Below, piece after piece: positions 60-19,687 of a stretch of 64,000 nt of DNA (position 1 is the stretch's first letter; the number at the start of each line of letters is the position of its first letter). Made by a program: the position numbers and the translations under genes. Below the pieces are notes generated by a model. It ran no database searches, had not been told where the DNA came from, and saw only the letters and a list, made by a program, of their open reading frames with translations. Source of the DNA: Fusicatenibacter sp. (GTDB lineage Bacteria > Bacillota > Clostridia > Lachnospirales > Lachnospiraceae); the NCBI GenBank assembly GCA_050872605.1, contig JBNMHD010000009.1, one strand, 5' to 3'.

Positions 60-3212
<3,153 letters not shown>

Positions 3213-3392
3213 CTATCTTCTTTTATCCAGATTGGTGTTCCTTTTTTGCTTTCCTGTGATATAATACATCTGTGGATTTCCAGAAGATTTATGCAGTTAC
3301 CTTATGATTTAGTATAAAACACTGCACGTGGATGAGAAATAGTTGATCTGGTGTTTCTTTTATCCAAAATGGGAAAGTAAAGGAGAAGGCGT

Positions 3393-4262
3393 ATGATACC
3401 GGAATATCTGCTTGCAAAAATCAAAAAGAGCGATGTCATCTATCGCTGTATTGGAAATGAAATGAAAAACGGGATTCTGGCATGCGGTTTTATGCGGAAA
3501 GAAACGGCGGACCGCTCCCAGTACCATTTTTCGAATGAATATTACAGCTGTTTTGTGCTGCTGCGCGGGAACGGAGAATATATTGCCGAGGACGGCACCT
3601 CCTATCCGCTGCAGACGGGAAGTCTGGTCCAGCGTCTGCCAGGCGTGCCGCATTCCACACGCGTTGATCCAGACGGGAAATGGCTGGAATTTTTTATCTC
3701 GATTGGGAAGCCGTTTTTTGAATCGTTCTGCTCGCTTTCTGTGCTAAACCGCGAGCCGGTGTTAAAAACGGAGCTGCTTCCCGGTGATCTCGAGCGGTAT
3801 CAGAAACTTCTGCAGTCGCTGAAGGCCACACCGGACAGTCTGCTTCCTTTACAGATTCCGGAGCTGCAGACGGAGATTCTCCGGATGTACGGTTACCATG
3901 CGCACCGGGTAAACCTGCAGCGTGACCCGATCGAGGCCGCCTGCGATGCACTCTCCCAGAATCTTGACGGGGAGATTTCTCTTGAGGAACTCGCTCAGTC
4001 ACTTCAGATCGGTTATGAGACGTTTCGAAAAATATTTAAAAAACAGACCGGCGTCTCTCCTGCACGGTACCGCACCGGGAAGAAAATGGAGCAGGCCCGT
4101 ATTCTTCTCGAGGGCGGCGTACCGATGAAGGAAATTGCCGGTCTGGTAGGATATGGCGATGTCTATGCATTCAGCAAACAGTTCTCCCGTTTTTTCGGAT
4201 TCCCGCCTGGAAAGTACCGTTCGCGTTTTCAGTCGGATACGGCTGATTTAGAACAGTTTTAA
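3393..4262 (+). CDS. AraC/XylS-family transcriptional regulator, divergent from lacZ
   Basis: 289 aa. N-terminal cupin-like half and C-terminal double HTH ('ISLEELAQSLQIGYETFRKIFKKQTGVSPARYR', 'IAGLVGYGDVYAFSKQFSRFFGFPPGKYR'). AAGGAG RBS. Confidence 0.85.
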   Translation: MIPEYLLAKIKKSDVIYRCIGNEMKNGILACGFMRKETADRSQYHFSNEYYSCFVLLRGNGEYIAEDGTSYPLQTGSLVQRLPGVPHSTRVDPDGKWLEFFISIGKPFFESFCSLSVLNREPVLKTELLPGDLERYQKLLQSLKATPDSLLPLQIPELQTEILRMYGYHAHRVNLQRDPIEAACDALSQNLDGEISLEELAQSLQIGYETFRKIFKKQTGVSPARYRTGKKMEQARILLEGGVPMKEIAGLVGYGDVYAFSKQFSRFFGFPPGKYRSRFQSDTADLEQF

Positions 4263-4784
4263 AATATCATCTACCGTTTTGCGTTTTGGCTTATCCGGGT
4301 TGATCGCGCGGTAGCCGACAGCGATGACAGCACCGAGGAGTTCCGTTTCCGGAATGGAAAGCGCTTCGCGGATGGCTTTCTCATTGCGGATACCCATGAT
4401 CAGGGTGTCGAGGCCGAGTTCTCTTGCGCGCAGGATGAAGTTTTCATCGTGAAGACCAAGATCATAGTAGCCCCAGCCATTTCCAACCTCATTGTCCGGG
4501 GTTCCGTCCTGCATAAAGCCGGAACGGTCTTTGACGAAGGTCGTCACTACGAGAACGGCTCCTTTGGAGCTTTTCTGATTGAATTCCGGCAGACATTTTG
4601 CGGAAAATTCTTCGACTTTCTCCGGTGTTACAAGGGCATAGTACCGTGTTGTCTGTGAGTTTTTCCAGGACGGAGCCTGAATGGCTGCCTGTACGATCTC
4701 CTGGATCTGCTCTGCGGTTACGTGTTTCTCCGGATCAAATGCGCGGATGCTTCTTCTTTCTTCCAGCAGTTTTGTAAATTCCAT
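4248..4784 (-). CDS. nitroreductase-family protein (FMN-dependent NAD(P)H oxidoreductase fold)
   Basis: 178 aa. N-terminal 'RRSIRAF' motif and size are typical of the family. AAGGAGGA RBS. The 3' end overlaps the araC-like 3' end by 15 nt (convergent). Confidence 0.8.
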   Translation of the reverse strand: MEFTKLLEERRSIRAFDPEKHVTAEQIQEIVQAAIQAPSWKNSQTTRYYALVTPEKVEEFSAKCLPEFNQKSSKGAVLVVTTFVKDRSGFMQDGTPDNEVGNGWGYYDLGLHDENFILRARELGLDTLIMGIRNEKAIREALSIPETELLGAVIAVGYRAINPDKPKRKTVDDILKLF

Positions 4785-4804
4785 GATGTATGTCCTCCTT
4801 TTTC

Positions 4805-5362
4805 TTATAAGGCCTCGTAATCTTCCCGTGAAAAACGGTGGTACGTCAGGCCGAATTCATTTTCTTCGACACAGTAACAGTATTCATCTACAGACGGGTC
4901 TGCAAAAGAAAATACATGGCCCATCTCATGCTCCTCGGATGCGTTTTCTTCCACGGTAGTATGCATTTTCTCTGCATAGGAAGAAAAGCAGTCCCGAACC
5001 TGCTCCATTGTGTTTCCAGGCATTGTGATCACCTGCAGAAGGTTCTGTAAGAGCTCCGGGACAGGAATCTCGCGTTCAATATAGGAACAGCCTTCCTCCG
5101 GGATTTCCACGCAGTAACGGTCTTTGATTGCTGATATTGCAAGAGCGCCAAGACGTGGCTGTACTTCCTTGCAGAATGCCGCAAGTGCGCTGTCCAGATC
5201 TTCTGTTTCGTTTAAAGAGAGGGAACGGCGCAGGGATTCCGCCGGGTAGTAGAGCTTCATCGTACCGCCCTCATAGCCGATCTTCACCTGCCATTCCCGA
5301 ATCGTATCAGTAATATGTTTTTCCAACAGTTCTGCTGTCATATTTTTTTCAGTCACCTCCAT
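4805..5362 (-). CDS. conserved hypothetical protein (resembles DUF3877-type proteins from memory, unverified)
   Basis: 185-aa ORF with coding-like composition and no TM segment or signal peptide. The start is uncertain: an alternative ATG at 5341 lies 14 nt downstream of a GGAGG. Confidence 0.55.
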   Translation of the reverse strand: MEVTEKNMTAELLEKHITDTIREWQVKIGYEGGTMKLYYPAESLRRSLSLNETEDLDSALAAFCKEVQPRLGALAISAIKDRYCVEIPEEGCSYIEREIPVPELLQNLLQVITMPGNTMEQVRDCFSSYAEKMHTTVEENASEEHEMGHVFSFADPSVDEYCYCVEENEFGLTYHRFSREDYEAL

Positions 5363-5450
5363 TATGCTGCATATGCGAAAAGCACAGTATTATCATCGCA
5401 CGAATCGTCCTCTGTTTCAAGAAAAAATTTCTGTTTTTATCCAGAGAAAC

Positions 5451-5495
5451 CCACAGACCCCTTCAATCCAGATTTTCTGGCGGAGGGGTCTGTGG
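5451..5495 (-). terminator. stem-loop downstream of the surface-protein gene
   Basis: 12-bp perfect stem CCACAGACCCCT / AGGGGTCTGTGG (5451-5462 and 5484-5495), followed on the minus strand by GTTTCTCT, a weak U-tract. Confidence 0.5.
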
Positions 5496-5537
5496 ATTCT
5501 TATGATCAGAAGAATTTCTCAGTCATTTCATTCTGGA

Positions 5538-8500
5538 TTACTCTTCATCTTCGTTTTTCTTTCTGCCGCGGAGTTTAAGTCCAAGTCCGCCGGCGCCAAG
5601 AGATGCAACGGCCATGCTTACCCATCCCCAGATGTTGGTTACATCACCAGTCTTTGCATTATCACTCTTCTTGGAAGTAGATGTATTGGATACATTGCTG
5701 CTTGCAAGCGGAGTCGAAGTTGCTTTCGGCGTGCTGGCCGGGGTCTTGGTCGGCTGTGCCGCAGGTGTTGTAGTCGGAGCAGTCGTCGGCGTTGTAGTCG
5801 GCGTTGTTGTAGGCGTGGTGGTTGGAGTAACAGTTGGAATCTCAGTTGGTGTTACGGTCGGAGTTTCCGTTGGGGTAACAGTCGGAGTCTCGGTAGGTGT
5901 TACAGTTGGGGTTTCCGTCGGGGTAACAGTCGGAGTCTCAGTCGGTGTTACGGTTGGGGTTTCTGTAGGAGCCGGGGTTGGCGTATCTGTTGCTGCTTTT
6001 ACAAGTGCTTCAATAGCTGCATTCAGATGCTCGGCTGCCTCATCGACCGCTGCCTGCGTATGTTTTGCTTCCAGTTCTTCTTTCGCTTCGGAAAGCTCGG
6101 TCTGCATGCTTGCCCAGGATTCTGCGGTGTAATCAGCCTCATTCAGTGCCTCTGCTTTTGCAATCGCTGCTTCCAGAGCTTCCGTACTCTGTACCGGATC
6201 ATCTTTTACAATGTTCTCATTGGTTGCCTGGAATTTGTAGGTTACATCTGCATAACCAAGTGCATGCATGGTGATCGTCCAGTATCCGGTTCCGTCAGTT
6301 CCTTCCGGAAGCTGGCAGCGTACCGAATCGGTCAGTCCGAGCTGGATTCCCATAGATTTGTGCATCCAGTTATCTGCGGCAAATTTCGTTCCGAAGGTGC
6401 GGAGTGCATTGGTATAGGTATCATCATTTCCATAGTAGGTCCAGGTTACACTCTGCATATTAGCGCCAAGGTCACCATAATCCTTATTCAGGTCTACACG
6501 AAGGAACTCGCCGAAGGAACCGTTTGCTTCCTGAACGGTCAGGCCAGCATCTTCTGCTGATGGAGCTGTCTTCAGTGCCTGATCTTTGATTCCGGATTCA
6601 CTTCCAACTGTTCTTGCAGAGAAGGAGAAGCTTCCATCTTCGTTTTTCACTGCCGTTTTCAGTCCGTTGGTGTTCTCTGTTACATTAGCAACAAGGCCGG
6701 TGTAGCCGCTCAGTTTACCCTCGGAGAAACCGCCATTCAAAATTCCGCCGTTTTCTACAACTGCATATTTCTGGCAGAATGCTTCATAATCATCCTCAGC
6801 TACTTTAACTGGAACGTATTTCAATCCGTATACTTCATAATGATCGATATCTTTTGCATCATAGGTTACTGTCTGGCCGTTTGTCAGAACTACCGTTGTT
6901 CTGTCCGTGTAGTAAGCTACTTTGTACTGGGTGCCGTCTTTCATAAAGATAGTAGCATTGCACTGATAGCTTCCTCTGTGGAGACCATGGTTTGTAGTTG
7001 CACGGGTTACGGTATCAAATGCACCTTTATCATACTCGCCTTTCGCATCTACTTCTTTAGATTCCTCCGTACTTCCTGCCTCATATACGCCCTCATTTGC
7101 CCAGTACTCACTCCAGGAAAGACCTGCATATACGTATTTGTAAGTAATCTCTTTCTTTACAAGTGCTTCAATGGCTGCATTCAGATGCTGTGCTGCTTCA
7201 TCCACTGCTGCCTGGGTATGTTTTGCTTCCAGCTCTTCTTTTGCCTCAGCCAGCTCGACCTGCATATTTGCCCAGCTCTCTGCGGTGTAATCAGCCTCAT
7301 TCAGTGCCTCTGCTTTTGCGATAGCTGCTTCCAGAGCTTCTGTACTCTGTACCGGATCCTCTTTTACAATGTTCTCATCGGTTGCCTGGAATTTGTAAGT
7401 TACATCTGCATAACCAAGTGCATGCATGGTGATCGTCCAGTATCCGGTTCCGTCAGTTCCTTCCGGGAGCTGGCAGCGTACCGAATCGATCAGACCCAGC
7501 TGAATTCCCATGGATTTGTGCATCCAGTTATCTGCGGCGAATTTCGTTCCGAAGGTGCGGAGTGCATTCGTATAAGTTGCATCATTTCCATAGTAGGTCC
7601 AGGTTACACTCTGCATATTAGCACCAAGGTCACCATAGTCCTTATTCAGGTCTACACGAAGGAATTCACCAAAGGAACCATTTGCTTCCTGTACCGTCAG
7701 GCCTGCATCTTCTGCGGATGGAGCAGTCTTCAGAGCCTGATCTTTGATTCCGGATTCGCTTCCAGTTGTTCTTGCAGAAAAAGAGAAACTTCCGTCTGCA
7801 TTCTTTGTTGCAGTTTTCAGTCCATTCGTATTCTCTGTTACATCTGCAACAAGACCAGTATATCCGCTCAGTTTGCCCTCAGAGAATCCACCATTTAAAG
7901 TTCCGCCATTTTCTACCACAGCATATTTCTGGCAGAATGCTTCATAATCTTCGGATGCTACTTTGACGGGAACATATTTCAGTCCATATACTTCATAATG
8001 ATCAATATCAGCTGCATTATAAGTTACAGTCTCACCATTCGTCAGAACTACCGTTGTTCTATCGGTGTAATAAGAAACCTGATACTGCGTACCGTCTTTC
8101 ATAAAGATGGTGGCATTGCACTGATAGCTTCCTCTGTGAAGTCCGTGGTTCGTCGTTGCACGCGTTACAGTATCGAAAGCGCCTTTATCATACTCGCCTT
8201 TGGCATCAACAACGCTGGAGCTTGTGGTATCTCCGGCCTGATATACGCCTTCTGCTGCCCAGTACTCTGACCAGGAAAGGCCTGCATACACATATTTGTA
8301 TTCATCCTCTGCAGGTGTTGTGGTAGGCGTTGCCGTTGGGGCTGCTGTAGGAGCAGCTGTAGGAGTCGCCGTTGGGATCGACGCTTTCACAAGCGCTTTT
8401 ACTGCCGTGTTCAATGCGTCTGCTGCGGTATCAACAGCCGTCTGAGACTCTTTTGCAGAAAGAGCCGCCTTTGCTGCGGTAAGTGCGGTCTGAACAGCTT

Positions 8501-9053
8501 TCCAGGAATCTGCGGTATAATCAGTCTCTTTTAATGCTTCAGCAGATGCGATTGCTTTTTCAAGAACTGCAGTATCTACGACAGCTGGAGTTGGAGTTGT
8601 CGTTTTGGCTGCTGCAAGAGCTGCTGTTTTTACTGCTGTAGAGGTTCTGGTTGCACCGGATACGGTATCCCAGCTTTCGATATTCGCAACAGTTGCATCT
8701 TTTCCCTGTAACTGTGCAATAATACCATTAGCTTTTTTGGTGCCGTTTAAGGCTTTGTTAAAATATGATCCATTTTCAGTTGCAACGTAGCCGCTTCCAG
8801 GTGTAACGGAAACATCTGTAAATTTTCCGTCTGCAACGGTCAGTTTAACGTTGACGTCATATTCATTCCATTCATTTTCAGCGTCATCGTCTTCTTCCGT
8901 TCTCGTAACATGAGCGGTAGACTCATAAGTGCCATCTGCCAGCACGCCGCTTGTGGAATCTGCCAGTACAGTTCCCGGGAGCAGGCTCATGGTCATGGAA
9001 GCTGCCATAACGGCGGCTAATGATTTTTTCTGAAGTTCCTTTCTTTTGATCAT
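5538..9053 (-). CDS. sortase-anchored surface protein: signal peptide, FMN-binding domain, FIVAR-like helical domain, 2 x (unassigned ~320-aa module + FIVAR-like domain), Pro/Thr stalk, NAKTG sorting signal
   Basis: 1171 aa with AAGGAGGAA RBS. The N-terminal signal is 'MIKRKELQKKSLAAVMAASMTMSLLPGTVLADS'. The flavinylation-type motif 'DTVSGATRTS' lies at aa 129-138. The C-terminus is NAKTG + hydrophobic segment + 'RGRKKNEDEE'. Confidence 0.9.
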   Translation of the reverse strand: MIKRKELQKKSLAAVMAASMTMSLLPGTVLADSTSGVLADGTYESTAHVTRTEEDDDAENEWNEYDVNVKLTVADGKFTDVSVTPGSGYVATENGSYFNKALNGTKKANGIIAQLQGKDATVANIESWDTVSGATRTSTAVKTAALAAAKTTTPTPAVVDTAVLEKAIASAEALKETDYTADSWKAVQTALTAAKAALSAKESQTAVDTAADALNTAVKALVKASIPTATPTAAPTAAPTATPTTTPAEDEYKYVYAGLSWSEYWAAEGVYQAGDTTSSSVVDAKGEYDKGAFDTVTRATTNHGLHRGSYQCNATIFMKDGTQYQVSYYTDRTTVVLTNGETVTYNAADIDHYEVYGLKYVPVKVASEDYEAFCQKYAVVENGGTLNGGFSEGKLSGYTGLVADVTENTNGLKTATKNADGSFSFSARTTGSESGIKDQALKTAPSAEDAGLTVQEANGSFGEFLRVDLNKDYGDLGANMQSVTWTYYGNDATYTNALRTFGTKFAADNWMHKSMGIQLGLIDSVRCQLPEGTDGTGYWTITMHALGYADVTYKFQATDENIVKEDPVQSTEALEAAIAKAEALNEADYTAESWANMQVELAEAKEELEAKHTQAAVDEAAQHLNAAIEALVKKEITYKYVYAGLSWSEYWANEGVYEAGSTEESKEVDAKGEYDKGAFDTVTRATTNHGLHRGSYQCNATIFMKDGTQYKVAYYTDRTTVVLTNGQTVTYDAKDIDHYEVYGLKYVPVKVAEDDYEAFCQKYAVVENGGILNGGFSEGKLSGYTGLVANVTENTNGLKTAVKNEDGSFSFSARTVGSESGIKDQALKTAPSAEDAGLTVQEANGSFGEFLRVDLNKDYGDLGANMQSVTWTYYGNDDTYTNALRTFGTKFAADNWMHKSMGIQLGLTDSVRCQLPEGTDGTGYWTITMHALGYADVTYKFQATNENIVKDDPVQSTEALEAAIAKAEALNEADYTAESWASMQTELSEAKEELEAKHTQAAVDEAAEHLNAAIEALVKAATDTPTPAPTETPTVTPTETPTVTPTETPTVTPTETPTVTPTETPTVTPTEIPTVTPTTTPTTTPTTTPTTAPTTTPAAQPTKTPASTPKATSTPLASSNVSNTSTSKKSDNAKTGDVTNIWGWVSMAVASLGAGGLGLKLRGRKKNEDEE
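5646..5660 (-). other. cell-wall sorting motif NAKTG (LPXTG variant)
   Basis: aa 1132-1136, followed by the ~20-aa hydrophobic stretch 'VTNIWGWVSMAVASLGAGGLGL' and a basic tail. This is the classical tripartite sortase signal. [SPN]xxTG variants are known in clostridia. Confidence 0.6.
5739..5996 (-). repeat. Pro/Thr-rich stalk: about 6 x 'TETPTVTP' (24-nt period) then 'TTTP' x 4 (12-nt period)
   Basis: Read directly in the translation (aa ~1020-1105) and as a 24-nt periodicity in the DNA. It is in frame within the CDS. Confidence 0.85.
5997..8300 (-). repeat. tandem direct duplication, period 1158 bp (386 aa), two near-identical copies
   Basis: 'acaagtgcttcaat' recurs at 6001 and 7159. 'YKYVYAGLSWSEYW' recurs at aa 252 and 638. 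Long identical nucleotide runs are broken only by scattered substitutions. Confidence 0.9.
8610..8942 (-). other. FMN-binding (FMN_bind-like) domain of the surface protein; predicted flavinylated Thr135 (motif nt 8649-8660)
   Basis: 'DGTYESTAH...VNVKLTVADGKFTDVSV...WDTVSGATRTSTAVKTAALAA' follows the NqrC/RnfG/PplA-type pattern ending in D-x-x-S-G-A-T. Confidence 0.75.
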
Positions 9054-9076
9054 AACTTCCTCCTTTTTCCTTTTCC

Positions 9077-9107
9077 ACAGTTTTGCAGGAAAAACAGGGG
9101 CAAAACT
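9077..9107 (-). promoter_or_regulatory. 5'-UTR stem-loop about 24 nt upstream of the surface-protein start codon
   Basis: Perfect 9-bp stem CAGTTTTGC / GCAAAACTG with a 13-nt loop, lying within the 283-nt AT-rich gap 9054-9336. Confidence 0.4.
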
Positions 9108-9336
9108 GTTGTTTATTATTATATTAGCTTTTGCTAATTAATAATTGTTTTAACTAACTGTAAATTATATTACTAATCCTAGATCGTTTTGTCTAACTCG
9201 CAAGTGGTTATTTTTTCTCAAAAAAGACACAGATTCTCCTTATTGAGTTTTTTTCACTATTTACTTATCTGATTTTTTGAAGTTTGCGGAATGATTTTTG
9301 TTTCCACACAGAAACATTTCTGAAGATATGCAGTGT

Positions 9337-9861
9337 TTACCGCGAAGAACTCTTCCGTCCTTCGCGTTTTACTGCCGAAAGAATGCGGTCCGAAAGGATT
9401 CCGATCAGCATTCCGGTGATGACACCGGCCACGAGAAGGGCCGGCAGATAATAGAACAGTTTGCGGTTCTGCACCACGAAAGCCGCCACGCAGATCTGGG
9501 CAACATTGTGTGTCACGCCGCCTGCAATGCTTACGCCGGTGATACTAAATCCTTTGATGTGTTTCAGCAGAAGCATCACCAGAAAGCTCAAAAGTCCGCC
9601 GGCAAGGCTGTAGAGGATGGACATTCCGTTTCCAAACAGATAGCCCATCAGAAGAATGCGGGCAACGGAAATCATCAGGACTTCCCCTGCCGGAAGGAAA
9701 AAGAGGCCGACAACGACAACCAGATTGGCAACGCCAAGTTTGATGCCGGGAACGCCGAGGTTGATCGGGATTAGTACCTCCACGTAACTGAAAATCATGG
9801 CAAGTGCCATCAGCATGGCGCATAAGGCAATTTTTCTGCTTGCAGTGCGGCTGTCTCTCAT
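9337..9861 (-). CDS. Gx transporter family protein (formerly 'heptaprenyl diphosphate synthase component I'-like)
   Basis: About 174 aa with 5 predicted TM segments and Gly-rich helices ('GVPGIKLGVANLVVVV', 'AGGVTHN'). I chose the ATG at 9861, 9 nt after AAAGGAA; the ORF track starts at a TTG at 9870. Confidence 0.7.
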   Translation of the reverse strand: MRDSRTASRKIALCAMLMALAMIFSYVEVLIPINLGVPGIKLGVANLVVVVGLFFLPAGEVLMISVARILLMGYLFGNGMSILYSLAGGLLSFLVMLLLKHIKGFSITGVSIAGGVTHNVAQICVAAFVVQNRKLFYYLPALLVAGVITGMLIGILSDRILSAVKREGRKSSSR

Positions 9862-9892
9862 AAGTTCCAATTCCTTTCTTTTGCTGGTGCGT

Positions 9893-10276
9893 TTATTTCA
9901 CAATGACATCCGGCGCATCGTCTGTGTCGTCTGATATCGAGCCATCGCTTTCTACCTCCGCCACCAGCTTATGCGGCAGGCACACGATCGTCTCATTCAC
10001 CCGGGAAATCGTACCCTGTCTTTTGCAGTAGCCGTCCGGGCAGTCGGCCTCTTCCATGTGGGCACTTCCATTTTTAATCACGAGGACATTCGTTCCGTGA
10101 TCTGTCTGAATTCTCACGGTCTGATCCTCTGCGAGCAGATACGTTCCGTAAACCTCGCCGTCCACCGTGACTTTCATGGTATTTCCATTTTCCGTTTTCG
10201 GCAGCCGAAGCGCCAGGGCAAGGATTCCGGCCAGGAGCAAAACGGCGCCTGCCAGAATCAGATCTTTTTTCTTCAT
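9893..10276 (-). CDS. NusG domain II-containing membrane-anchored protein
   Basis: 127 aa. N-terminal TM anchor 'LILAGAVLLLAGILALAL', then a small beta-rich domain with 'CPDGYCKRQG...CLPHK'. It is paired with a Gx transporter, which is the usual arrangement. Confidence 0.65.
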   Translation of the reverse strand: MKKKDLILAGAVLLLAGILALALRLPKTENGNTMKVTVDGEVYGTYLLAEDQTVRIQTDHGTNVLVIKNGSAHMEEADCPDGYCKRQGTISRVNETIVCLPHKLVAEVESDGSISDDTDDAPDVIVK

Positions 10277-10297
10277 ACAATTTTCCTTATTCTGAAA

Positions 10298-11170
10298 TTA
10301 GATGCCAGCCCATAACAGCAGTGTCAGCAGGAATACCGCACGGAACAGGGTAAACAGGATTTCATTTCCATGAAGTTCCTTTACTCCGCAGCAGATATTG
10401 CCTTTCGGACACGTATCAATACATTTCTGACACTGGAAACAGTCGCCGGAAATTTCCATGGAACTGTCGGACGGCAGCTCCACCGCAGACGGACACTGTC
10501 TCGTACAGGCGCTGCAGCCGCGGATACAGTTTTCACGTTTCCGGTGCAGGGTGAAAAACGGCAGGATCGGGAGCAGAGAAAAGACAGCTCCCATCGGGCA
10601 CAGGAAACGGCAGAAAAAGCGTTCCTCAAAAAACATGCCGACCAGGATCAGCAGCAGGAGTACAATTCCCGGAACATAAGAGGAAAGCCGGAAATTTCCT
10701 GCATGCAGCATGGAAAAGACATCCCACGGACTCGTTCCTCTGGCTTTCTGATAAACTCCTGCAAAGCAGCAAAGTGCAATCAGAAGCAGAATGCCGTATT
10801 TGAACAGTGCCAGTTTTTTTGCTGTTTCCGGTTTGATGCGTCTGGGCTTCTTTTTACGTTTCTTACAGATTATACCATAAATTGCGTGCATTGCATCCCC
10901 CAGACTTCCAAAAGCGCATGCAAAACCGCAGAAAAATCTGCCAAAAACAATCGTAAATGCACAGACAAGGAGCAGAGCCGACACAAACGCGGTCATTTCG
11001 ATTTTCTCGCCCTGTCCCAGCTGCGTAAAAATGTATTTGACTCCGTTAAATGCAGCAGTGAATACCGACGGAAGAAACAGGAAATATAAAAGCTGGATTC
11101 CGGCGCGCAGGCAGGAAACGATCTGCTTTCTCTTCTTTGCCGGCAATTTGGATAAGTCTAAATTTTTCAT
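10298..11170 (-). CDS. NapH-like polytopic 4Fe-4S membrane protein (polyferredoxin)
   Basis: 290 aa. Two membrane CxxxC motifs ('GRFFCGFACAFG', 'RFFCRFLCPMG') and two ferredoxin motifs ('CIRGCSACTRQCP', 'CFQCQKCIDTCP'). The start codon lies 1 nt after the upstream gene's stop. Confidence 0.8.
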   Translation of the reverse strand: MKNLDLSKLPAKKRKQIVSCLRAGIQLLYFLFLPSVFTAAFNGVKYIFTQLGQGEKIEMTAFVSALLLVCAFTIVFGRFFCGFACAFGSLGDAMHAIYGIICKKRKKKPRRIKPETAKKLALFKYGILLLIALCCFAGVYQKARGTSPWDVFSMLHAGNFRLSSYVPGIVLLLLILVGMFFEERFFCRFLCPMGAVFSLLPILPFFTLHRKRENCIRGCSACTRQCPSAVELPSDSSMEISGDCFQCQKCIDTCPKGNICCGVKELHGNEILFTLFRAVFLLTLLLWAGI

Positions 11171-11171
11171 G

Positions 11172-11660
11172 TTATTTCTCCGCCTTTTCTATTGCTTCCT
11201 GCGCCGCATTTTTGATGCCGGTGGAGCTGAAGGTTGCTCCGCTTATCGTATCAACATCGGCGGACTGTGCCTCAAGAATCTTTGGAATGATCGCCTCCGC
11301 GTTTGACAGATACGCACTGTCCTCGCCGTCGGCGGATGTGATGGCAAGATCGGTAATCTGGCCGCCCTCTACAGTTACTTCAACTGCAATGGTGCCGCCG
11401 AAGCCGTCAGCCTCACCGTCATACGTGCCGTCCACGTACTGCCCTTCTGCTTCTGCTGCTTCATCCGCGCCCGTATCCGCCGTGTTGGATGCAGCTGCGG
11501 CGGCCTGCAGGTTTTCCTTCTGCAGCTGGGTCGTCTCAAGCTCTGCCGAAAGCCGTGCGATCTGATCCTCTTTGTCTCTTTTGTCGAGCACCGTGTTGTA
11601 GCCGATCAGAACAGCGGCAATGACAGCGATATTCAAAAAACGAACAATCAATTGTCTCAT
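11172..11660 (-). CDS. membrane-anchored single FMN-binding-domain protein
   Basis: 162 aa. TM anchor 'FLNIAVIAAVLIGY', a coiled/Ala-rich linker, and the domain 'YVDGTYDGEADGFGGTIAVEV...VDTISGATFSSTGIKNAAQEAI'. The SGAT motif is at nt 11232-11243. Confidence 0.85.
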   Translation of the reverse strand: MRQLIVRFLNIAVIAAVLIGYNTVLDKRDKEDQIARLSAELETTQLQKENLQAAAAASNTADTGADEAAEAEGQYVDGTYDGEADGFGGTIAVEVTVEGGQITDLAITSADGEDSAYLSNAEAIIPKILEAQSADVDTISGATFSSTGIKNAAQEAIEKAEK

Positions 11661-11672
11661 CTGTTTTCCCCT

Positions 11673-13739
11673 TTATTGCGTTACTTTCGCAGCGTCCAGC
11701 GCATTCCGGCATGCCTCAAGAATGGCTTTTGAGGAGCAGGTTGCGCGGGAAACGGTATCAATGTTCTCAAGCGTTCCTGTTTCCAGAATCTGAGCGGAAA
11801 CGCCTTTGATTTTGGAGGTTCCCTCGGATGCGCGGCGGATGTAGGAGGCATTCTGACTATCTCCGTACCCGGTGATGTTGCTTAATGCTACGATTTTATC
11901 GTTTTCAATCGTTACCGTTACGGAAAGCTGATAAGCAGTAAAATCTTCATCTTCATCCGGTTCGCAGACGGCAATCGCTGTGTATTCGCCGTCCTGATAG
12001 ATCTTTTGTTCCGGAGTTTCCGTCGGCGTTGGGGTTGGCGTCTCAGTTGGCTCCGGGGTTTCGGTCGGGGTTGGAGTTTCCGTCGGTGTCGGAGTTACCG
12101 TTGGCGTCGGGGTTGGATTTTTCTTTTCTTCAGTTACGCGTTCTGCCTCTTTTAAAGCTTCCTCGATTGCCGCAAGAATTCCCCTGGAGCTGTAGGTTGC
12201 GCCGGAAACAGTGTCAACTTCCAGTGTCTGGTTTTTCACAACGTCCTTTGCCGTCTGTTTTGCGCGTTTTAAGAATGCTTCGTCATCTTCACTCTCGGTC
12301 ACGAGAATGGCCTTGATCGTCTCATCCTGAATGACAACTGCCGTTGTAATGTCTCCCAGATAGCCCTCACCGGTTCCGTAGTAAATGCCTTCCTCGTATG
12401 GGAATTTTCCTTCCGGAACCGCTGTGGTTCCGCCGCTGTTCGTTCCGTTATCCGGAACGGTTTCGCCGTTTGTTGCTTTCTTCGCATTTTCCAGTGCCTG
12501 TTTTACTGCGTTCTGGATGCCGCGGGAGCTGTAGGTTGCGCCGGATACGAGATCCACATCGGTTTTCTGTCCGTCTACGATGCGGTCCGCTACGACTTTG
12601 GCACGGTTGAAGAATGTCTCGTCATCTTCGTTTTCCAGAATCAGTACCGCTTTGATCGTCTGATCCTGCAGGGCTACCGCCACTTTGATGTCTCCCTGAA
12701 AACCGGCGGCTGTGCCGTAATAAATGCCGTCCTTATACGGGAAACTTCCCTTGGATGCGGATGAGTTGTTGCTCTGACTGTTTCCATTGCCGTTGTTCTG
12801 GCTGCTGTTTCCATTGTTTGTATTATTCTGGCTGCTTCCATTTGTGCCGGAAGATCCATTCACCGCCGCCTGGCTTAACGCGCTGCGTACGGCTTCGATA
12901 ATACCGCGGGAGCTGTACGTTGCACCTGAAACGGTATCCACATTGGTGCTCTGTGTCGAGATAATCGTGGAAATCAGGGAAGAAGCGCTGGAAAGATAGC
13001 TCGGTGTATCACTGTTTTCCACAATATTAATCGAGGTGATTTTTCCGCCGCTGACAACAACACAGACTTTCATCGTACCGCCAAAGCCCGTTCCGCTTCC
13101 GTAATACGTTCCGTCCCGGTATGCGGCCGGTTCTTCGATTTTCGATACGGTAACACTTCCGCCGGAAGATGCAGCGCCTATCGCACCAGATGCAGATGCC
13201 GGTTCTGAGGTATCTGTCTGACCGGTCAGTGCATTTTTTACGGCCGCCAGGATTCCTTTAGAACTGAAGGTTGCACCGGATACCGTGTCCACATCCACAC
13301 TTTGGGATGCGATGATGCGGTCAATGACACCCTTGGCACGGTTCAGGAAGGCTGCGTCCTCACCCGGAGCACTGACAATCGAGATAGACTGAATGGTTTT
13401 GTCCTTTAATACCACAGATACGGTAATTGTTCCGCCAAAACCAATTCCGCTTCCCTCATACGTTCCGTCTGCCAGTTCAAAACTGCCGGAGCCGACTGCC
13501 GCAGCAGTTTCTGCTTCGGTATCAGTTGTCTTCTTTTTCGTATCCTCTTTCTTTTTATTGTCGTCTTTCTTTTCCGCTGTATCGGTATCCCGTCCCGGCT
13601 CCGGTGTCACCAGTGCCTCCGGCTGCTCTACGGCATAAACCGGTGCAGTATATCCATTCAGCGAAATGCCCGCGCAGGCCGCTACAATAACCGCTGCAAG
13701 AGCCGGTGCAAATGCTGTCAGTTTTTTCCATTTTCCCAT
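11673..13739 (-). CDS. secreted or lipid-anchored protein with five tandem FMN-binding domains (four canonical, one variant)
   Basis: 688 aa. The N-terminal signal has a possible lipobox, 'IVAAC'. SGAT motifs lie at nt 13269-13280, 12918-12929, 12534-12545 and 12195-12206, and an SRAT variant at 11739-11750. The domains are separated by K/D/T-rich, S/G-rich, N/S/G-rich and P/T-rich linkers. Confidence 0.9.
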   Translation of the reverse strand: MGKWKKLTAFAPALAAVIVAACAGISLNGYTAPVYAVEQPEALVTPEPGRDTDTAEKKDDNKKKEDTKKKTTDTEAETAAAVGSGSFELADGTYEGSGIGFGGTITVSVVLKDKTIQSISIVSAPGEDAAFLNRAKGVIDRIIASQSVDVDTVSGATFSSKGILAAVKNALTGQTDTSEPASASGAIGAASSGGSVTVSKIEEPAAYRDGTYYGSGTGFGGTMKVCVVVSGGKITSINIVENSDTPSYLSSASSLISTIISTQSTNVDTVSGATYSSRGIIEAVRSALSQAAVNGSSGTNGSSQNNTNNGNSSQNNGNGNSQSNNSSASKGSFPYKDGIYYGTAAGFQGDIKVAVALQDQTIKAVLILENEDDETFFNRAKVVADRIVDGQKTDVDLVSGATYSSRGIQNAVKQALENAKKATNGETVPDNGTNSGGTTAVPEGKFPYEEGIYYGTGEGYLGDITTAVVIQDETIKAILVTESEDDEAFLKRAKQTAKDVVKNQTLEVDTVSGATYSSRGILAAIEEALKEAERVTEEKKNPTPTPTVTPTPTETPTPTETPEPTETPTPTPTETPEQKIYQDGEYTAIAVCEPDEDEDFTAYQLSVTVTIENDKIVALSNITGYGDSQNASYIRRASEGTSKIKGVSAQILETGTLENIDTVSRATCSSKAILEACRNALDAAKVTQ
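12009..12119 (-). repeat. Pro/Thr/Glu linker 'PTPTPTVTPTPTETPTPTETPEPTETPTPTPTETPE'
   Basis: Low-complexity in-frame repeat between FMN domains 4 and 5. A second, Asn/Ser/Gly-rich linker lies at about 12753-12857. Confidence 0.8.
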
Positions 13740-13741
13740 GG

Positions 13742-14905
13742 TTATGTATCACCGTCTTTCCTGATAATGTTTGTCTCATGATCGGATGTGAAATCATCGG
13801 CGATTCCTTCGGTTACGTACAGAACGCCGTTCTCATCCTCCAGAATGGTGTCGAATTCATCGCTGTGCGCACGCCAGTATTCGGCCGCCTTATCCTTTCC
13901 CATGATGAAAAGAGAAGTCGAAAGGCCATCCGCCAGTGTTCCGTCCGCGCTTACGATCGTCACAGATACCAGACCGTTATTCGCCGGATGACCAGTTGCC
14001 GGATCAATGATGTGATGGTATCTCACACCGTCCTGTTCGAAATACCGCTCATATCCACCCGAAGTGATGACTGCCCGGTCAGCTGTTGAGAGAATGCCGA
14101 GATAATCGTCCTCTGCTTCCGGACTCTGCACGGCAACACGCCATTTGCTGCCATCCGTTTTCGTGCCGACAACCTGAACGTTTCCTCCGAGGTTGATGAG
14201 CCCGCTCGTCACACCGCATTCCCGGTAAATATCCGCGATTCTGCCGGACGTATAACCCTTTGCAATTCCGCCGAAGTCGATTTTCATGCCGCTCTTTGCG
14301 AAGCTGATGGATGAATTTTCTTTGTCGTAGACAATATTATTGGCATCGGTCAGTGGAAGGAGACTTTCGATCGTCTCATCCGAAGGAACGGTATAATTTC
14401 CAGTCGTAAAGCCCCAGGCATCCATGATCGGGTAAATTGCGATGTCGAAAACACCGTTTGTGCTGTCATACAGATCCAGGGAGCGTTCCAACAGATAGGT
14501 GGTATCCTCCGATAAGGTTCCGCCGCCGTTCGCATTGATCTGCGCGACCTCACTCGTTTCCTCTCCAGTCGACAGGAGCGCATCCAGCCGCTCAATCTCC
14601 TGCTGTGCCTGATCTACCGCCTTCTCTGCGTTTGGACCGTAGGCAGTTACCGTCATGTACGTATCCATCGCAAAAATATCACGGCTGCTCGACGCATCGG
14701 CGGCATCGGAAGAAGATGTGGATGACGCGGATTCCTGCGTGGAATTCTCTTCCGAAGCGTCAGAACTGCTCGAAGACTCCGAAACAGACACCGGCTGTGT
14801 CTGACTTTCACTGCTCTCCGGCTGCGCTGCTGTCCCCGTACCGGAACATCCGCCGACCGTCATCACCATGGCAAGACAAAATGCTGCAACAATTTTCTTT
14901 TTCAT
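13742..14905 (-). CDS. apbE: FAD:protein FMN transferase (ApbE family) lipoprotein
   Basis: 387 aa. Lipobox 'MTVGGC', a Ser/Glu-rich tether, and ApbE-type motifs ('DIAIYPIMDAWGF', 'DFGGIAKGY', 'VITSGGYERYF', 'HHIIDPATG'). The stop codon lies 2 nt before the next gene's start. Confidence 0.9.
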   Translation of the reverse strand: MKKKIVAAFCLAMVMTVGGCSGTGTAAQPESSESQTQPVSVSESSSSSDASEENSTQESASSTSSSDAADASSSRDIFAMDTYMTVTAYGPNAEKAVDQAQQEIERLDALLSTGEETSEVAQINANGGGTLSEDTTYLLERSLDLYDSTNGVFDIAIYPIMDAWGFTTGNYTVPSDETIESLLPLTDANNIVYDKENSSISFAKSGMKIDFGGIAKGYTSGRIADIYRECGVTSGLINLGGNVQVVGTKTDGSKWRVAVQSPEAEDDYLGILSTADRAVITSGGYERYFEQDGVRYHHIIDPATGHPANNGLVSVTIVSADGTLADGLSTSLFIMGKDKAAEYWRAHSDEFDTILEDENGVLYVTEGIADDFTSDHETNIIRKDGDT

Positions 14906-15085: not shown

Positions 15086-15129
15086 ATACAAAAAGCCCCC
15101 ACAGCCGCATTGCTGCGGCCGCGGGGGCT
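15086..15129 (-). terminator. rho-independent terminator of pflB
   Basis: GC-rich stem GCCCCCGCGGCCGC / GCGGCTGTGGGGGC with a 6-nt loop, followed by TTTTTGT on the minus strand, 23 nt after the pflB stop. Confidence 0.85.
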
Positions 15130-15151
15130 TTAGAAATAACATTTTCAGAAA

Positions 15152-17404
15152 TTACATATGATCATGGCAGGTACGTGCAATTACGTCCATCTGCTGCTCT
15201 TTTGTCAGGTCGATGAATTTAACTGCATAACCGGATACACGGATCGTGAAGTTTGCGTACTCCGGTTTCTCCGGGTGCTCCATTGCATCGATCAGTTTTT
15301 CGGTTCCGAATACGTTTACGTTCAGGTGATGTGCACCCTGCTCGAAGTATCCGTCCAGAACGTGTACCAGGTTCTCGGTACGCTCTTCGTCGTTGTGGCC
15401 GAGTGCGCCCGGGTTGATGGTCTGGGTGTTGGAGATTCCGTCCAGAGCGTCCTCATACGGCAGTTTTGCTACAGAGTTCAGGGAAGCAAGAAGTCCGCTC
15501 TTCTCTGCGCCGTAAGACGGGTTAGCTCCTGGAGACAGAGGCTCGCCGGCTTTTCTGCCATCCGGCAGAGAACCAGTTGCTTTACCATATACAACGTTGG
15601 AAGTAATGGTAAGGATAGAGGTAGTCGGCTCGGAATCACGATAGGTATGGCAGTATTTCAGTTTGTCCATGAAGGTACGAAGCAGCCATACAGCGATCTC
15701 GTCTGCTCTGTCATCGTCGTTACCGTATCTCGGGAAGTCACCGGTTGTCTCGAAATCAACAGCCATTCCTTCTTCGTCACGGATAACTTTAACTTTAGCG
15801 TATTTGATTGCGCTTAAGGAGTCTACTACGTGAGAGAATCCTGCGATACCGGTTGCGAAAGTACGTCTTACATCGGTGTCGATCAGAGCCATCTCTGCTG
15901 CTTCATAGTAGTATTTGTCATGCATGTAATGGATCATGTTCAGAGTTCCAACGTACAGATGAGCCAGCCAGTCCATCATAACGTCGTATTTCTTCATAAC
16001 CTCATCATAGTCCAGATACTCGCTGGTGATCGGCTGATATTCCGGAGCAACCTGCTGTTTTGTCTTCTCGTCTTTACCGCCGTTGATTGCGTACAGAAGG
16101 CATTTTGCAAGGTTTGCACGAGCGCCGAAGAACTGGATCTCTTTACCGGTCTCGGTAGCGGATACACAGCAGCAGATGGAGTAATCATCGCCCCATACCG
16201 GACGCATTACATCATCGTTCTCATACTGGATAGAGCTTGTCTGTACAGAAATATGAGCTGCATATTTCTTGAAAGCTTCCGGAAGGTGCTCAGAGTACAG
16301 AACAGTAAGGTTCGGCTCTGGGGACGGTCCCATGTTTTCCAGTGTATGCAGGAAACGGAAATCGTTCTTTGTAACGATAGAACGTCCGTCGATTCCCATA
16401 CCGGCAACTTCCAGCGTAGCCCATACCGGGTCACCGGAGAACAGCTGATTGTAAGACGGAATTCTTGCGAATTTAACCATACGGCATTTCATTACCAGAT
16501 GGTCGATCAGCTCCTGAGCCTCTTTCTCGGTCAGGATTCCTTTTTCGATATCTCTTTCAATGTAGATGTCAAGGAAAGTAGATACACGGCCAACGCTCAT
16601 TGCAGCACCGTTCTGGGTCTTGATTGCTGCAAGATATCCGAAATACAGCCACTGAACAGCCTCTTTTGCGTTCTTAGCCGGCTGGGAAATGTCATAGCCA
16701 TAAGACTGTGCCATAACTTTCATTTCCTGAAGTGCTTTTACCTGGTCTGCGATTTCTTCTCTTAACTGGAAGTCACCACGACGCATTCCCTGACGGTTGG
16801 TTGCAGCGAAATCTGCTTTTTTGCGCTCGATCAGGTAATCAATACCGTACAGAGCAACACGACGATAGTCGCCTACGATACGGCCACGGCCATAGGTATC
16901 CGGCAGACCGGTCAGGATTTTATTATGACGGGCTTTCATCATCTCTGGTGTGTAGATGTCGAATACACCCTGGTTATGTGTTTTGTGATATTTAGTGAAA
17001 ATTTCATGAAGCTTCTCGCTTGGTTTGTAGCCGTAAGTCTCGCAGGACTGCTCAGCCATTTTAATTCCACCATACGGCATAAATGCACGTTTCAGCGGTT
17101 TGTCTGTCTGAAGACCAACTACCTGCTCCAGATCTTTCATGCTGTCATCGATATATGCTGCGCCGTAAGCTGTGATTCCGCTTACAACTTCTGTCTCCAT
17201 ATCCAGAACGCCGCCTTTTGCACGCTCTTCTTTCTGGAGTTCCTGTAATTTGCCCCACAGACGGTCTGTAGCCTCTGTCGGTCCTTCCAGGAATTTTTCA
17301 TCTCCATCATATGGAGTATAGTTGTTCTGAATAAAGTCACGTACGTCAACGCCTTCTTTCCAGAGTCTTCCGGAAAAGCCGTCCCACTGTTCAAATTCTC
17401 TCAT
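15152..17404 (-). CDS. pflB: formate C-acetyltransferase (pyruvate formate-lyase)
   Basis: 750 aa. Glycyl-radical motif 'RVSGYAVKF' near the C-terminus and active-site 'SICCCVSA'. AAAGGAA RBS. Confidence 0.95.
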
Positions 17405-17488
17405 TTGATTTGTTCCTTTCTGGTGTTATTTTGTTTCGTCACGCTCCGGCATCTTCTTTGCACCGGGCATGAACACCTCCGCATGCAT

Positions 17489-17517
17489 AATATAACAAAT
17501 CTCTGCTTTCCGCGCAA
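17489..17517 (-). promoter_or_regulatory. candidate sigma-A promoter for pflB (TTGCGC-17-TATATT)
   Basis: The hexamers were read on the minus strand, with 17-nt spacing, about 85 nt upstream of the ATG. Confidence 0.45.
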
Positions 17518-17529
17518 GATATGCACTTG

Positions 17530-17568
17530 AAAAAATACAAGGAAAAACCACAAAATCTTGTATTTTTA
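17530..17568 (-). terminator. AT-rich stem-loop after the GH-like gene
   Basis: AATACAAG / CTTGTATT 8-bp stem followed by TTTTTC on the minus strand. Confidence 0.45.
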
Positions 17569-17600
17569 TAAGAACAAAATCTACATGTGGCGCTTTCTTT

Positions 17601-19481: not shown

Positions 19482-19687
19482 CGTGTGATATCCCCCTTTT
19501 TCTTTATCATATGCGTTCCAAACGCCAGAAAGGCGCAGAGAACCCGTCCGCCTTTCTCTGCACGGTTCCGGATTTTCTGCGCCTTTTTCCACCTAACTAT
19601 CATTTCGCAAACATGATTTTTCTGTTTTTCGTAAAAATCGTTATCCTCTGTTTTAAGCAATATTTGCTTGTTTCAGACGATTAGTAG

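Follow-up and report, generated by a model that had tools for sequence, protein, structure and literature searches.

Tandem Tp47-family modules on a wall-anchored flavoprotein of Fusicatenibacter sp., a candidate distal subunit of a NapH-like flavin electron conduit

The question raised by the locus described here is what a duplicated module of about 320 amino acids (aa) does on a surface protein that begins with a flavin mononucleotide (FMN)-binding domain. The protein is encoded in a 64,000-nucleotide stretch of contig JBNMHD010000009.1 (GenBank assembly GCA_050872605.1) from Fusicatenibacter sp., hereafter the window; coordinates refer to this window and, unless stated otherwise, to its minus strand. 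A previous reading made without database searches (the sequence-only reading) had described the product of positions 5538-9053 as a cell-wall-anchored flavoprotein with a module that could be tied to no known family, and had proposed it as a previously undescribed end-point of a Gram-positive electron-export chain. We found that the module belongs to the family of Tp47, a lipoprotein of Treponema pallidum, and that the gene closes an operon of flavinylation genes whose association with this family recurs across species. The interpretation that we favour, with a probability of roughly 0.6, places the protein at the distal end of a NapH-type, ApbE-dependent flavin electron conduit, as its wall-anchored subunit, in a Fusicatenibacter-like Lachnospiraceae bacterium.

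Sequence and fold searches agreed on the identity of the module. Pfam assigned the two modules of the protein (module A, aa 249-565, 317 aa, at 7359-8309; module B, aa 635-951, at 6201-7151) to PBP-Tp47_a (E 2e-122, 405.1 bits) plus PBP-Tp47_c (E 5e-157, 517.7 bits), with two stretches for each family and a cut-off of 25; module B was delimited from the second Pfam stretch and from its repeat identity to the unit of module A. The module sequence also matched the structure of T. pallidum Tp47 (PDB 1o75). An AlphaFold2 (AF2) model of aa 249-635 had a predicted local distance difference test score (pLDDT) of 86.2 and a predicted template modelling score (pTM) of 0.79, and the sole confident neighbour of this model in a Foldseek search against PDB was 1o75_A (E 2.7e-18, probability 1.00, template modelling score about 0.5), the remaining hits being weak FIVAR or Ig-like pieces. 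The view of a module with no family ties is thus superseded. The fold search had been proposed in the sequence-only reading, for which a match to an adhesin or carbohydrate-binding fold free of redox cofactors would have been an objection; no carbohydrate-binding module (CBM) and no redox-free adhesin family or fold matched the module core in Pfam or in the Foldseek search against PDB, so that this objection does not arise.

Tp47 (TP0574) is the founding member of PBP-Tp47_a and PBP-Tp47_c. It shares with the window module the same two N-terminal beta-rich domains, both by hidden Markov model (HMM) and by fold, as well as the motifs FD-x-V-S/T-R-A-T-x-x-H-G, V-T-E-N-T-N-G-L-K and Y-G-T-K-x-x-A-D-x-W, and both proteins are extracytosolic. 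Tp47 residues from about 7 to 326 have their counterpart in the module, in which the stretch corresponding to residues 70-147, the site of a putative SVTK motif in Tp47, is reduced to roughly half its length. Tp47 has four domains, the C-terminal one being Ig-like; it is a periplasmic lipoprotein of about 415 aa that contains one module, with a longer insert between residues 70 and 147. In the window protein, by contrast, two modules are present and a FIVAR segment comes after each of them, the N-terminal domain is FMN_bind, and a Pro/Thr stalk leads to a sortase signal. The full organisation of Tp47 was accordingly not found in the window protein, in which FIVAR stands in place of the C-terminal domain and a sortase anchor is present with no lipobox.

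The open reading frame (ORF) spans 5538-9053 exactly on the minus strand, the plus-strand frame being interrupted by many stops. Its translation and the Pfam matches define a cell-wall-anchored FMN_bind-Tp47x2 protein of 1171 aa, and the order of elements, from signal peptide to wall anchor, is the one that had been read from the letters alone (Pfam, sequence and AF2). The predicted signal peptide (aa 1-31, MIKRKELQKK...LPGTVLA; 8961-9053) has a basic N-terminus followed by a hydrophobic, transmembrane-like segment at aa 12-30, with a putative cleavage site at its end. The FMN_bind domain (aa 56-156; 8586-8888) matches PF04205 at aa 66-149 (26.7 bits versus a gathering score of 22) and is also matched, with E 3.4e-24, by an HMM that we built from the FMN_bind domains of flavinylation clusters; a PDB sequence search with this domain gave nothing meaningful. 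It carries the canonical ApbE flavinylation motif DTVSGAT at aa 129-135 (8649-8669), with T135 as the predicted acceptor. This motif, a signal peptide and an apbE gene in the cluster are the features by which flavinylated FMN_bind domains are recognised, and all three are present.

Three FIVAR-like three-helix segments accompany these domains: segment 1 (aa 160-222; 8388-8576) follows the FMN_bind domain and is separated from module A by a Pro/Thr/Ala linker (aa 223-248; 8310-8387), and segments 2 (aa 570-634; 7152-7346) and 3 (aa 956-1020; 5994-6188) follow modules A and B, respectively. Pfam finds FIVAR in three stretches, the first at aa 164-221, with 25.2 bits, below the gathering score of 29.2; in NCBIfam the segments match the FIVAR-bearing tails of LnbX, HypBA2 and ZmpB. 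Segment 2, the only one modelled, consists in AF2 of three confident helices (pLDDT >90), and segment 3 is also delimited by repeat alignment. The C-terminal part of the protein is a Pro/Thr-rich stalk (aa 1021-1131; 5661-5993; 64% Pro+Thr) followed by a sorting signal (5541-5660) made of the pentapeptide NAKTG (aa 1132-1136), the hydrophobic stretch DVTNIWGWVSMAVASLGAGGLGLKL and the tail RGRKKNEDEE. The two modules announced in the sequence-only reading thus stand, with their extents slightly adjusted, and the stalk is 111 aa long instead of about 85. The pentapeptide differs from the canonical LPXTG; among 150 family sequences, 31 sorting-signal-like tails were found, and 20 of these have the form xxKTG plus hydrophobic stretch plus basic tail. 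No sortase gene was present among the annotated genes of the window, where annotation extends up to 36 kb. The stalk DNA contains a 48-bp tandem repeat at 5821-5963 (3 copies, 87% matching, Tandem Repeats Finder) with the 16-aa unit TPTETPTVTPTETPTV, which is likely to be a site of length variation.

Each module together with its FIVAR segment forms a repeat unit of 386 aa, and identity between its two copies is 92% at the protein level and 86% at the DNA level. The codon differences between them comprise 102 synonymous and 31 non-synonymous changes, which indicates that the duplication is not an assembly artefact and that purifying selection has acted on both copies. The duplication of the unit is therefore genuine and moderately old.

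The gene for this protein is the last one of an operon that runs on the same strand from apbE to eetB and then to the target. The first gene (13742-14905) encodes an ApbE/FmnB flavin transferase with a VGGC lipobox (PF02424, E 1.7e-89). It is followed by a gene whose lipoprotein-like product of 688 aa has five FMN_bind domains (11673-13739; five Pfam stretches, E 1.6e-68; lipobox-like VAAC), four of which have an SGAT-core motif (DTVSGAT in three, DLVSGAT in one), the fifth and C-terminal one (aa ~590-688) reading DTVSRAT. Next come a membrane-anchored protein with a single FMN_bind domain and the motif DTISGAT (11172-11660; Pfam E 1e-13; transmembrane segment at aa 1-26) and a NapH-like polytopic iron-sulfur (Fe-S) protein of the Fer4_5 type (10298-11170; PF12801, E 2.6e-9; NapH/MauN TIGR02163, E 9.5e-20), the latter with 5-6 transmembrane segments and two four-Cys clusters at aa 215-226 and 244-254. 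A NusG_II-domain protein with an N-terminal transmembrane segment (9893-10276; Pfam E 3.5e-31) and an EetB homolog (9337-9870; PF07456, E 6e-40) precede the target gene. PF07456 corresponds to EetB, the flavin adenine dinucleotide (FAD)-exporting ECF-S subunit required for extracytosolic flavinylation in Listeria, and eetB usually adjoins eetA and often apbE as well (PMC9973259); the NusG_II protein is probably the EetA partner of EetB. A strong intrinsic terminator after pflB (15092-15131; 18-pair stem with 12 G-C pairs, followed by a T run) marks the upstream boundary of the operon.

The same linkage was observed in other species. Tp47-family hits amounted to 1459 in a database clustered at 90% and to 370 representatives at 50% clustering, and at least 356 species-level genomic loci carry a gene of the family. 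The closest 80 of these 356 loci, each from a different GTDB species, were inspected over up to 10 kb on each side of the Tp47-family gene. FMN_bind genes were present within this distance in 71 of them, NapH-like genes in 67, apbE in 64, eetB in 52 and NusG_II genes in 50, over loci that span Bacillota and Actinomycetota, many of the misses being due to short contigs; metagenomic loci (L001-L006 and L087-L089) showed a concordant gene pattern. One locus (L021), considered as a case of ApbE and Tp47 with no FMN_bind gene, was discarded as a probably collapsed assembly, its ApbE ORF being truncated and its Tp47 ORF beginning inside a FIVAR segment. The association also extends to fusions within one polypeptide: among 114 full-module representatives searched with our FMN_bind HMM, 63 have FMN_bind fused to the module (51 at the N-terminal side and 12 at the C-terminal side), and Pfam finds FMN_bind in 22 of 36 large family members. 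Operon, linkage (64 to 71 of the 80 loci) and fusions altogether support the coupling of the module to an extracytosolic flavin chain that had been proposed for this protein.

The hosts of the family are mostly gut Lachnospiraceae (Blautia, Dorea, Fusicatenibacter, Mediterraneibacter, Anaerostipes, Roseburia and Lachnospira), Coriobacteriia (Collinsella, Senegalimassilia and Eggerthellaceae) and Erysipelotrichales, and many members are surface proteins of 1000-2000 aa with two or three modules. A search of T. pallidum Tp47 fragments against a collection of 5.8 billion proteins returned only Firmicutes-type members, and neither Tp47 itself nor any spirochaete protein. In an alignment of 123 modules (numbering of module A), residues D294, R298, A299, T300, H303, G304, W485, W510, H512 and W539 are invariant, as is [S/T]297 (100%), and V296 (98%) and H306 (93%) nearly so. 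These residues lie in the His- and Trp-containing stretches singled out in the sequence-only reading, which proved to be the conserved parts of the module. The emphasis placed there on three cysteines was mistaken, since they are present in 53%, 28% and 85% of the modules and are thus not conserved in the family. The most conserved element is the loop DTVTRATTNHGLH of module A (aa 294-306; 8136-8174), a candidate cofactor or active site, which recurs by repeat alignment in module B (aa 680-692; 6978-7016). A second conserved block, G-T-K-F-A-A-D-N-W-M-H, contains W510 and H512. T. pallidum Tp47, which reads FDAVSRATHGHG, keeps the first block and G-T-K-x-x-A-D-x-W.

Comparison with Fusicatenibacter saccharivorans (locus L008) indicates how the protein has evolved. 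The window is syntenic with this locus; DNA identity is 87-92% on both flanks, a range that also holds for the two ends (5' and 3') of the gene. The ortholog (L008:7895-12823) matches the scaffold of the window protein in its signal peptide, FMN_bind domain, first FIVAR segment, stalk and NAKTG anchor. The cargo on this scaffold differs, being Tp47-FIVAR-Tp47-FIVAR in the window and paralog-HID-Tp47-FIVAR-paralog-HID in F. saccharivorans, where HID is the Shr-like haemoglobin-interacting domain (PF07550); both window modules map to the single Tp47 module of the ortholog. The differing cargo on a shared scaffold indicates that modules are exchanged like cassettes and that the duplication is lineage-specific. 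The paralog is a domain of about 360 aa with no Pfam assignment (L008:8720-9778; YVLMNIPYxxFY...VDAVTSATxNKTR...YGDYQ...RHLENIW), absent from the window protein but found in 67 of the 150 family representatives and in 56 of 86 loci, usually followed by the Shr-like HID. A PDB sequence search with this domain gave nothing meaningful; profile alignment with hhalign identified it as a divergent paralog of the Tp47 module (probability 97.9%, E 3.6e-13), and it seems to represent a domain family not yet described.

The operon can be assigned to a class of systems that is already known. NapH-like systems are defined by a PF12801 Fe-S membrane protein encoded in one cluster with ApbE and secreted FMN_bind proteins (Meheust 2021, PMC8238504), all of which are present here, with a separate FMN_bind gene, as is a counterpart of the multi-flavinylated "beads-on-a-string" protein of published systems (PMC11334425). 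The published NapH-like clusters are tied to NosZ, PceA, NirS or ExaA, or have no terminal enzyme (PMC8238504); neither the main text of that study nor the part of its supplement that was covered speaks of a terminal protein of the Tp47 family, and Tp47 domains are likewise not mentioned in the survey of flavinylated systems in PMC11334425. In the literature searched, no paper brings domains of the Tp47 family together with flavinylation, with FMN or with electron transfer. The description of the protein as a previously undescribed end-point therefore holds for the Tp47 module and not for the type of chain: the new part would plausibly be a Tp47-family terminal module on an already described NapH-like flavinylated system.

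The extracellular electron transfer (EET) locus of Listeria monocytogenes (Ndh2, DmkA/B, EetA/B, FmnA/B and PplA) has ApbE/FmnB, EetB and probably EetA in common with the window operon, and the five-FMN_bind surface lipoprotein is analogous to PplA. Unlike in Listeria, neither an NADH dehydrogenase (Ndh2, K03885) nor a prenyltransferase (DmkA/B) occurs among the genes at 4248-14905, transfer across the membrane would proceed via the NapH-like Fe-S protein, and the wall-anchored Tp47-module flavoprotein would extend the chain beyond the lipoprotein. The covalent union of a flavinylated domain with its partner has a precedent in the FMN_bind-fused reductases, such as the fumarate reductases of Klebsiella and Listeria and the urocanate reductase of Shewanella, in which an ApbE-flavinylated domain is fused to the domain that it feeds. 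The window protein follows the same fusion logic, with a Tp47 fold as the presumed working domain instead of the FAD_binding_2 flavoenzyme of those reductases.

Membrane topology and the published models of such systems suggest a direction and an order of electron flow. FAD would be exported by EetB, with participation of the NusG_II protein, and used by ApbE to place FMN on the threonines of D-x-x-S-G-A-T motifs. Cytoplasmic reducing equivalents would enter the polytopic NapH-like Fe-S protein and pass to the membrane-anchored single-FMN_bind protein, then to the lipoprotein with five FMN_bind domains, and from this to the FMN on T135, held outside the wall on the sortase-attached Pro/Thr stalk. 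The T135 flavin would in turn feed the Tp47 modules, the acceptor-facing working ends, in which the loop D-x-V-T-R-A-T-x-N-H-G-L-H-R-G-S and the block G-T-K-F-A-A-D-N-W-M-H may form a cofactor or substrate site that accepts electrons. In the most specific version of this scheme, FMN would also be bound to T300 and T686, the threonines of the loops of modules A and B, making the protein a three-flavin terminal reductase.

This most specific version arises from the likeness of the loop to a flavinylation site. The ApbE motif is defined as D-x-x-[S/T]-G-A-[S/T], and substitution of its Gly by Ala retains about 50% of flavinylation (PMC12052999). The most conserved element of the module, D-x-V-[S/T]-R-A-T-x-N-H-G, corresponds to this heptad at all defined positions except for Gly to Arg. 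When the module sequence was shuffled at constant composition, the tight pattern D-x-V-[ST]-x-A-T appeared by chance in 0.36% of cases and the loose pattern in 6.7%. In all six-frame ORFs of the window the tight pattern occurs eight times, exclusively in proteins of the flavinylation cluster: in the five FMN_bind domains of the 688-aa neighbour, in the FMN_bind domain of the target and in its two modules. Multi-flavin proteins of these clusters recurrently have the variant [S/A]-R-A-T in their last, C-terminal FMN_bind domain (22 domains), and the paralogous domain described above has an invariant S-A-T, most commonly as D-x-V-[S/T]-S-A-T, at the position aligned to the module motif. In the AF2 model, the segment with pLDDT <50 (model residues 49-61, aa 297-309) overlaps the motif loop, the other low-confidence stretch of the module being four residues long (258-261). 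The site is thus in an accessible, low-confidence loop and, in 64 of the 80 loci, within 10 kb of apbE, as expected of an ApbE substrate. On these sequence patterns we raise the possibility, with the odds somewhat against it, that Tp47-family domains, including T. pallidum Tp47 and the paralogous domain, are an unrecognised class of ApbE substrates carrying FMN on the invariant Thr of D-x-V-[S/T]-[R/S]-A-T, and that T300 and T686 may be the attachment sites themselves.

Several observations weigh against this proposal and, more broadly, against a redox function of the modules. The module sequence DTVTRAT departs from the ApbE consensus, with Arg invariant and Gly never present in the 123 modules. 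The presence of ApbE is already explained by the FMN_bind genes of the same clusters. Homology of the Tp47 module to FMN_bind at the level of whole domains was considered and rejected, since hhalign aligned the 8-residue motif alone (P 0.023, probability 2%). Neither Pfam nor Foldseek revealed a recognisable redox-cofactor fold or motif in the module. For a compact protein that fuses FMN_bind to Tp47 (P0048), AF2 gave no confident docking of the two domains (pTM 0.64, with a shallow FMN_bind alignment), and pLDDT was <50 both for the true SGAT loop and for that of Tp47. The domains that co-occur in large family members (FIVAR, Big_2, SLH, fn3, LRR and HID) are typical of adhesins, and the module region (about 74% DNA identity to F. 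saccharivorans) is far more diverged than its flanks (87-92%), as is usual for surface-binding modules. Finally, some loci have no flavinylation gene, either with full 10-kb flanks (L069, L079 and L085) or in regions cut short downstream (L058 and L084), so that the linkage is strong but not obligatory.

The orphan loci belong to Anaerostipes spp. (L079, L085, L058 and L084) or are represented by L069, and the flavinylation-like motif is intact in all of them. The orphan gene of L079, with Tp47, Big_3 and fn3 domains by Pfam, adjoins a two-component system, with a similar ORF layout in L085 and L084, and that of L069 adjoins a gene for an NIR_SIR 4Fe-4S protein.

The explanation that best accommodates such data other than electron transfer is that the modules are redox-inert binders of a host or dietary macromolecule, a mineral surface or a haemoprotein, which position the T135 flavin, with the conserved loop as ligand site. 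It agrees with the beta-rich fold and its weak Ig-like or adhesin-domain neighbours, with the combination of the module with FIVAR, Big_2, fn3, SLH, LRR and Shr-type haemoglobin-interacting domains, with the cassette-like replacement of a cargo that diverges faster than its flanks, and with the members encoded apart from flavinylation genes. On the other hand, the Asp/Arg/Thr/His/His/Arg/Gln loop is kept from Lachnospiraceae and Coriobacteriia to the periplasmic Tp47 of a spirochaete, and such constancy in different environments would be unusual for a ligand-binding surface. The loop moreover mimics a flavinylation motif, both copies are under purifying selection, and the module core matches no CBM or adhesin family. 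Taking both sides together, we consider a purely binding role unlikely.

A second alternative is that of an extracellular ferric or haem reductase, in which the modules, with HID in relatives, would capture haem, haemoprotein or Fe(III) to be reduced by the flavin chain for uptake. PF07550 was found in 21 of the 36 large family members and, as described above, in the F. saccharivorans ortholog, where it stands beside the Tp47 module as it does beside the NEAT haem-receptor domain in Shr of Streptococcus pyogenes, a hint that the substrate in such lineages may be haem or an iron protein. The literature also repeatedly ties flavinylated systems to iron reduction and transport, and EET in Listeria was measured as ferric reductase activity (PMC9973259). 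The window protein itself, unlike Shr, has no HID, the operon lacks genes for iron or haem transporters, Pfam found no NEAT domain in the large members surveyed (n=36), and PF07550 is a domain name and not proof of haem binding here. For the window protein we regard this role as quite unlikely; being a special case of the distal-subunit interpretation and not exclusive of it, it also means that the likelihoods given here do not add up to one.

The Pfam name of the family suggests a third possibility, a penicillin-binding protein (PBP) or other peptidoglycan-active enzyme. Tp47 reportedly has beta-lactamase activity, and its WWKTG sequence contains one of the putative PBP motifs, KTG. In the module this KTG aligns to HKSMG, only T-N-G-L-K is conserved near the "TEN" site, and the SxxK, SxN and KTG motifs that identify classical PBPs and beta-lactamases were not found. 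In spite of the homology to Tp47, which was reported with its 2002 structure as a novel penicillin-binding protein (Deka 2002), other current Tp47 literature dealing with host-cell effects, such an activity is very improbable here, given also the halved 70-147 segment, a context of flavin electron transfer and not of wall synthesis, and the position of the modules distal to the wall anchor on a long stalk.

Of the genes that surround the operon, those immediately downstream of the target (4248-5362) encode proteins of the DUF3877 (185 aa) and nitroreductase (178 aa) families. Of the 80 loci, only that of F. saccharivorans has DUF3877 and 8 have a nitroreductase, so that neither gene is likely to belong to the core of the system. 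An AraC-type regulator is encoded on the plus strand at 3393-4262. A plus-strand ORF at 750-3317 (855 aa, Cys-rich, with no hits), considered as a partner of a 960-aa protein of L. eligens, was rejected as a spurious shadow ORF; it is overlapped by a GH2 beta-galactosidase gene (1035 aa) at 60-3167. Upstream of the operon (15152-19592) lie genes for a pyruvate formate-lyase (TIGR01255, 1163 bits) and for a GH101/DUF5696-like protein, and the region from 20.6 to 36 kb carries housekeeping genes followed by aconitase and citrate lyase alpha.

In T. pallidum, for which the genomic context is taken from published annotation since our genome scan and protein search yielded no spirochaete locus, TP0572 lies two locus tags from tp47 (TP0574) and is one of two proteins with an FMN-binding flavinylation motif (PMC4436053); it is a membrane protein whose residues about 269-360 model on NqrC (PMC5956850 supplements). 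Were Tp47-family domains ApbE substrates, T. pallidum Tp47 would be a periplasmic flavoprotein that partners TP0572 and the flavin transferase Ftp, and not a penicillin-binding protein, and the window protein would be a three-flavin, wall-anchored terminal oxidoreductase.

Tp47 is among the best-known bacterial antigens and a core element of syphilis diagnostics. The linkage by operon or by fusion described here, which is almost always present in the family, gives the Tp47 family a concrete and testable redox hypothesis, and provides NapH-like and multi-flavinylated systems with a candidate for their terminal module. Should the motif prove to be flavinylated, ApbE substrates would include more folds than are now recognised and an abundant lipoprotein of a major pathogen would have to be reinterpreted; if it is not flavinylated, the proteins would still represent a new and abundant class of surface flavoproteins of gut bacteria.

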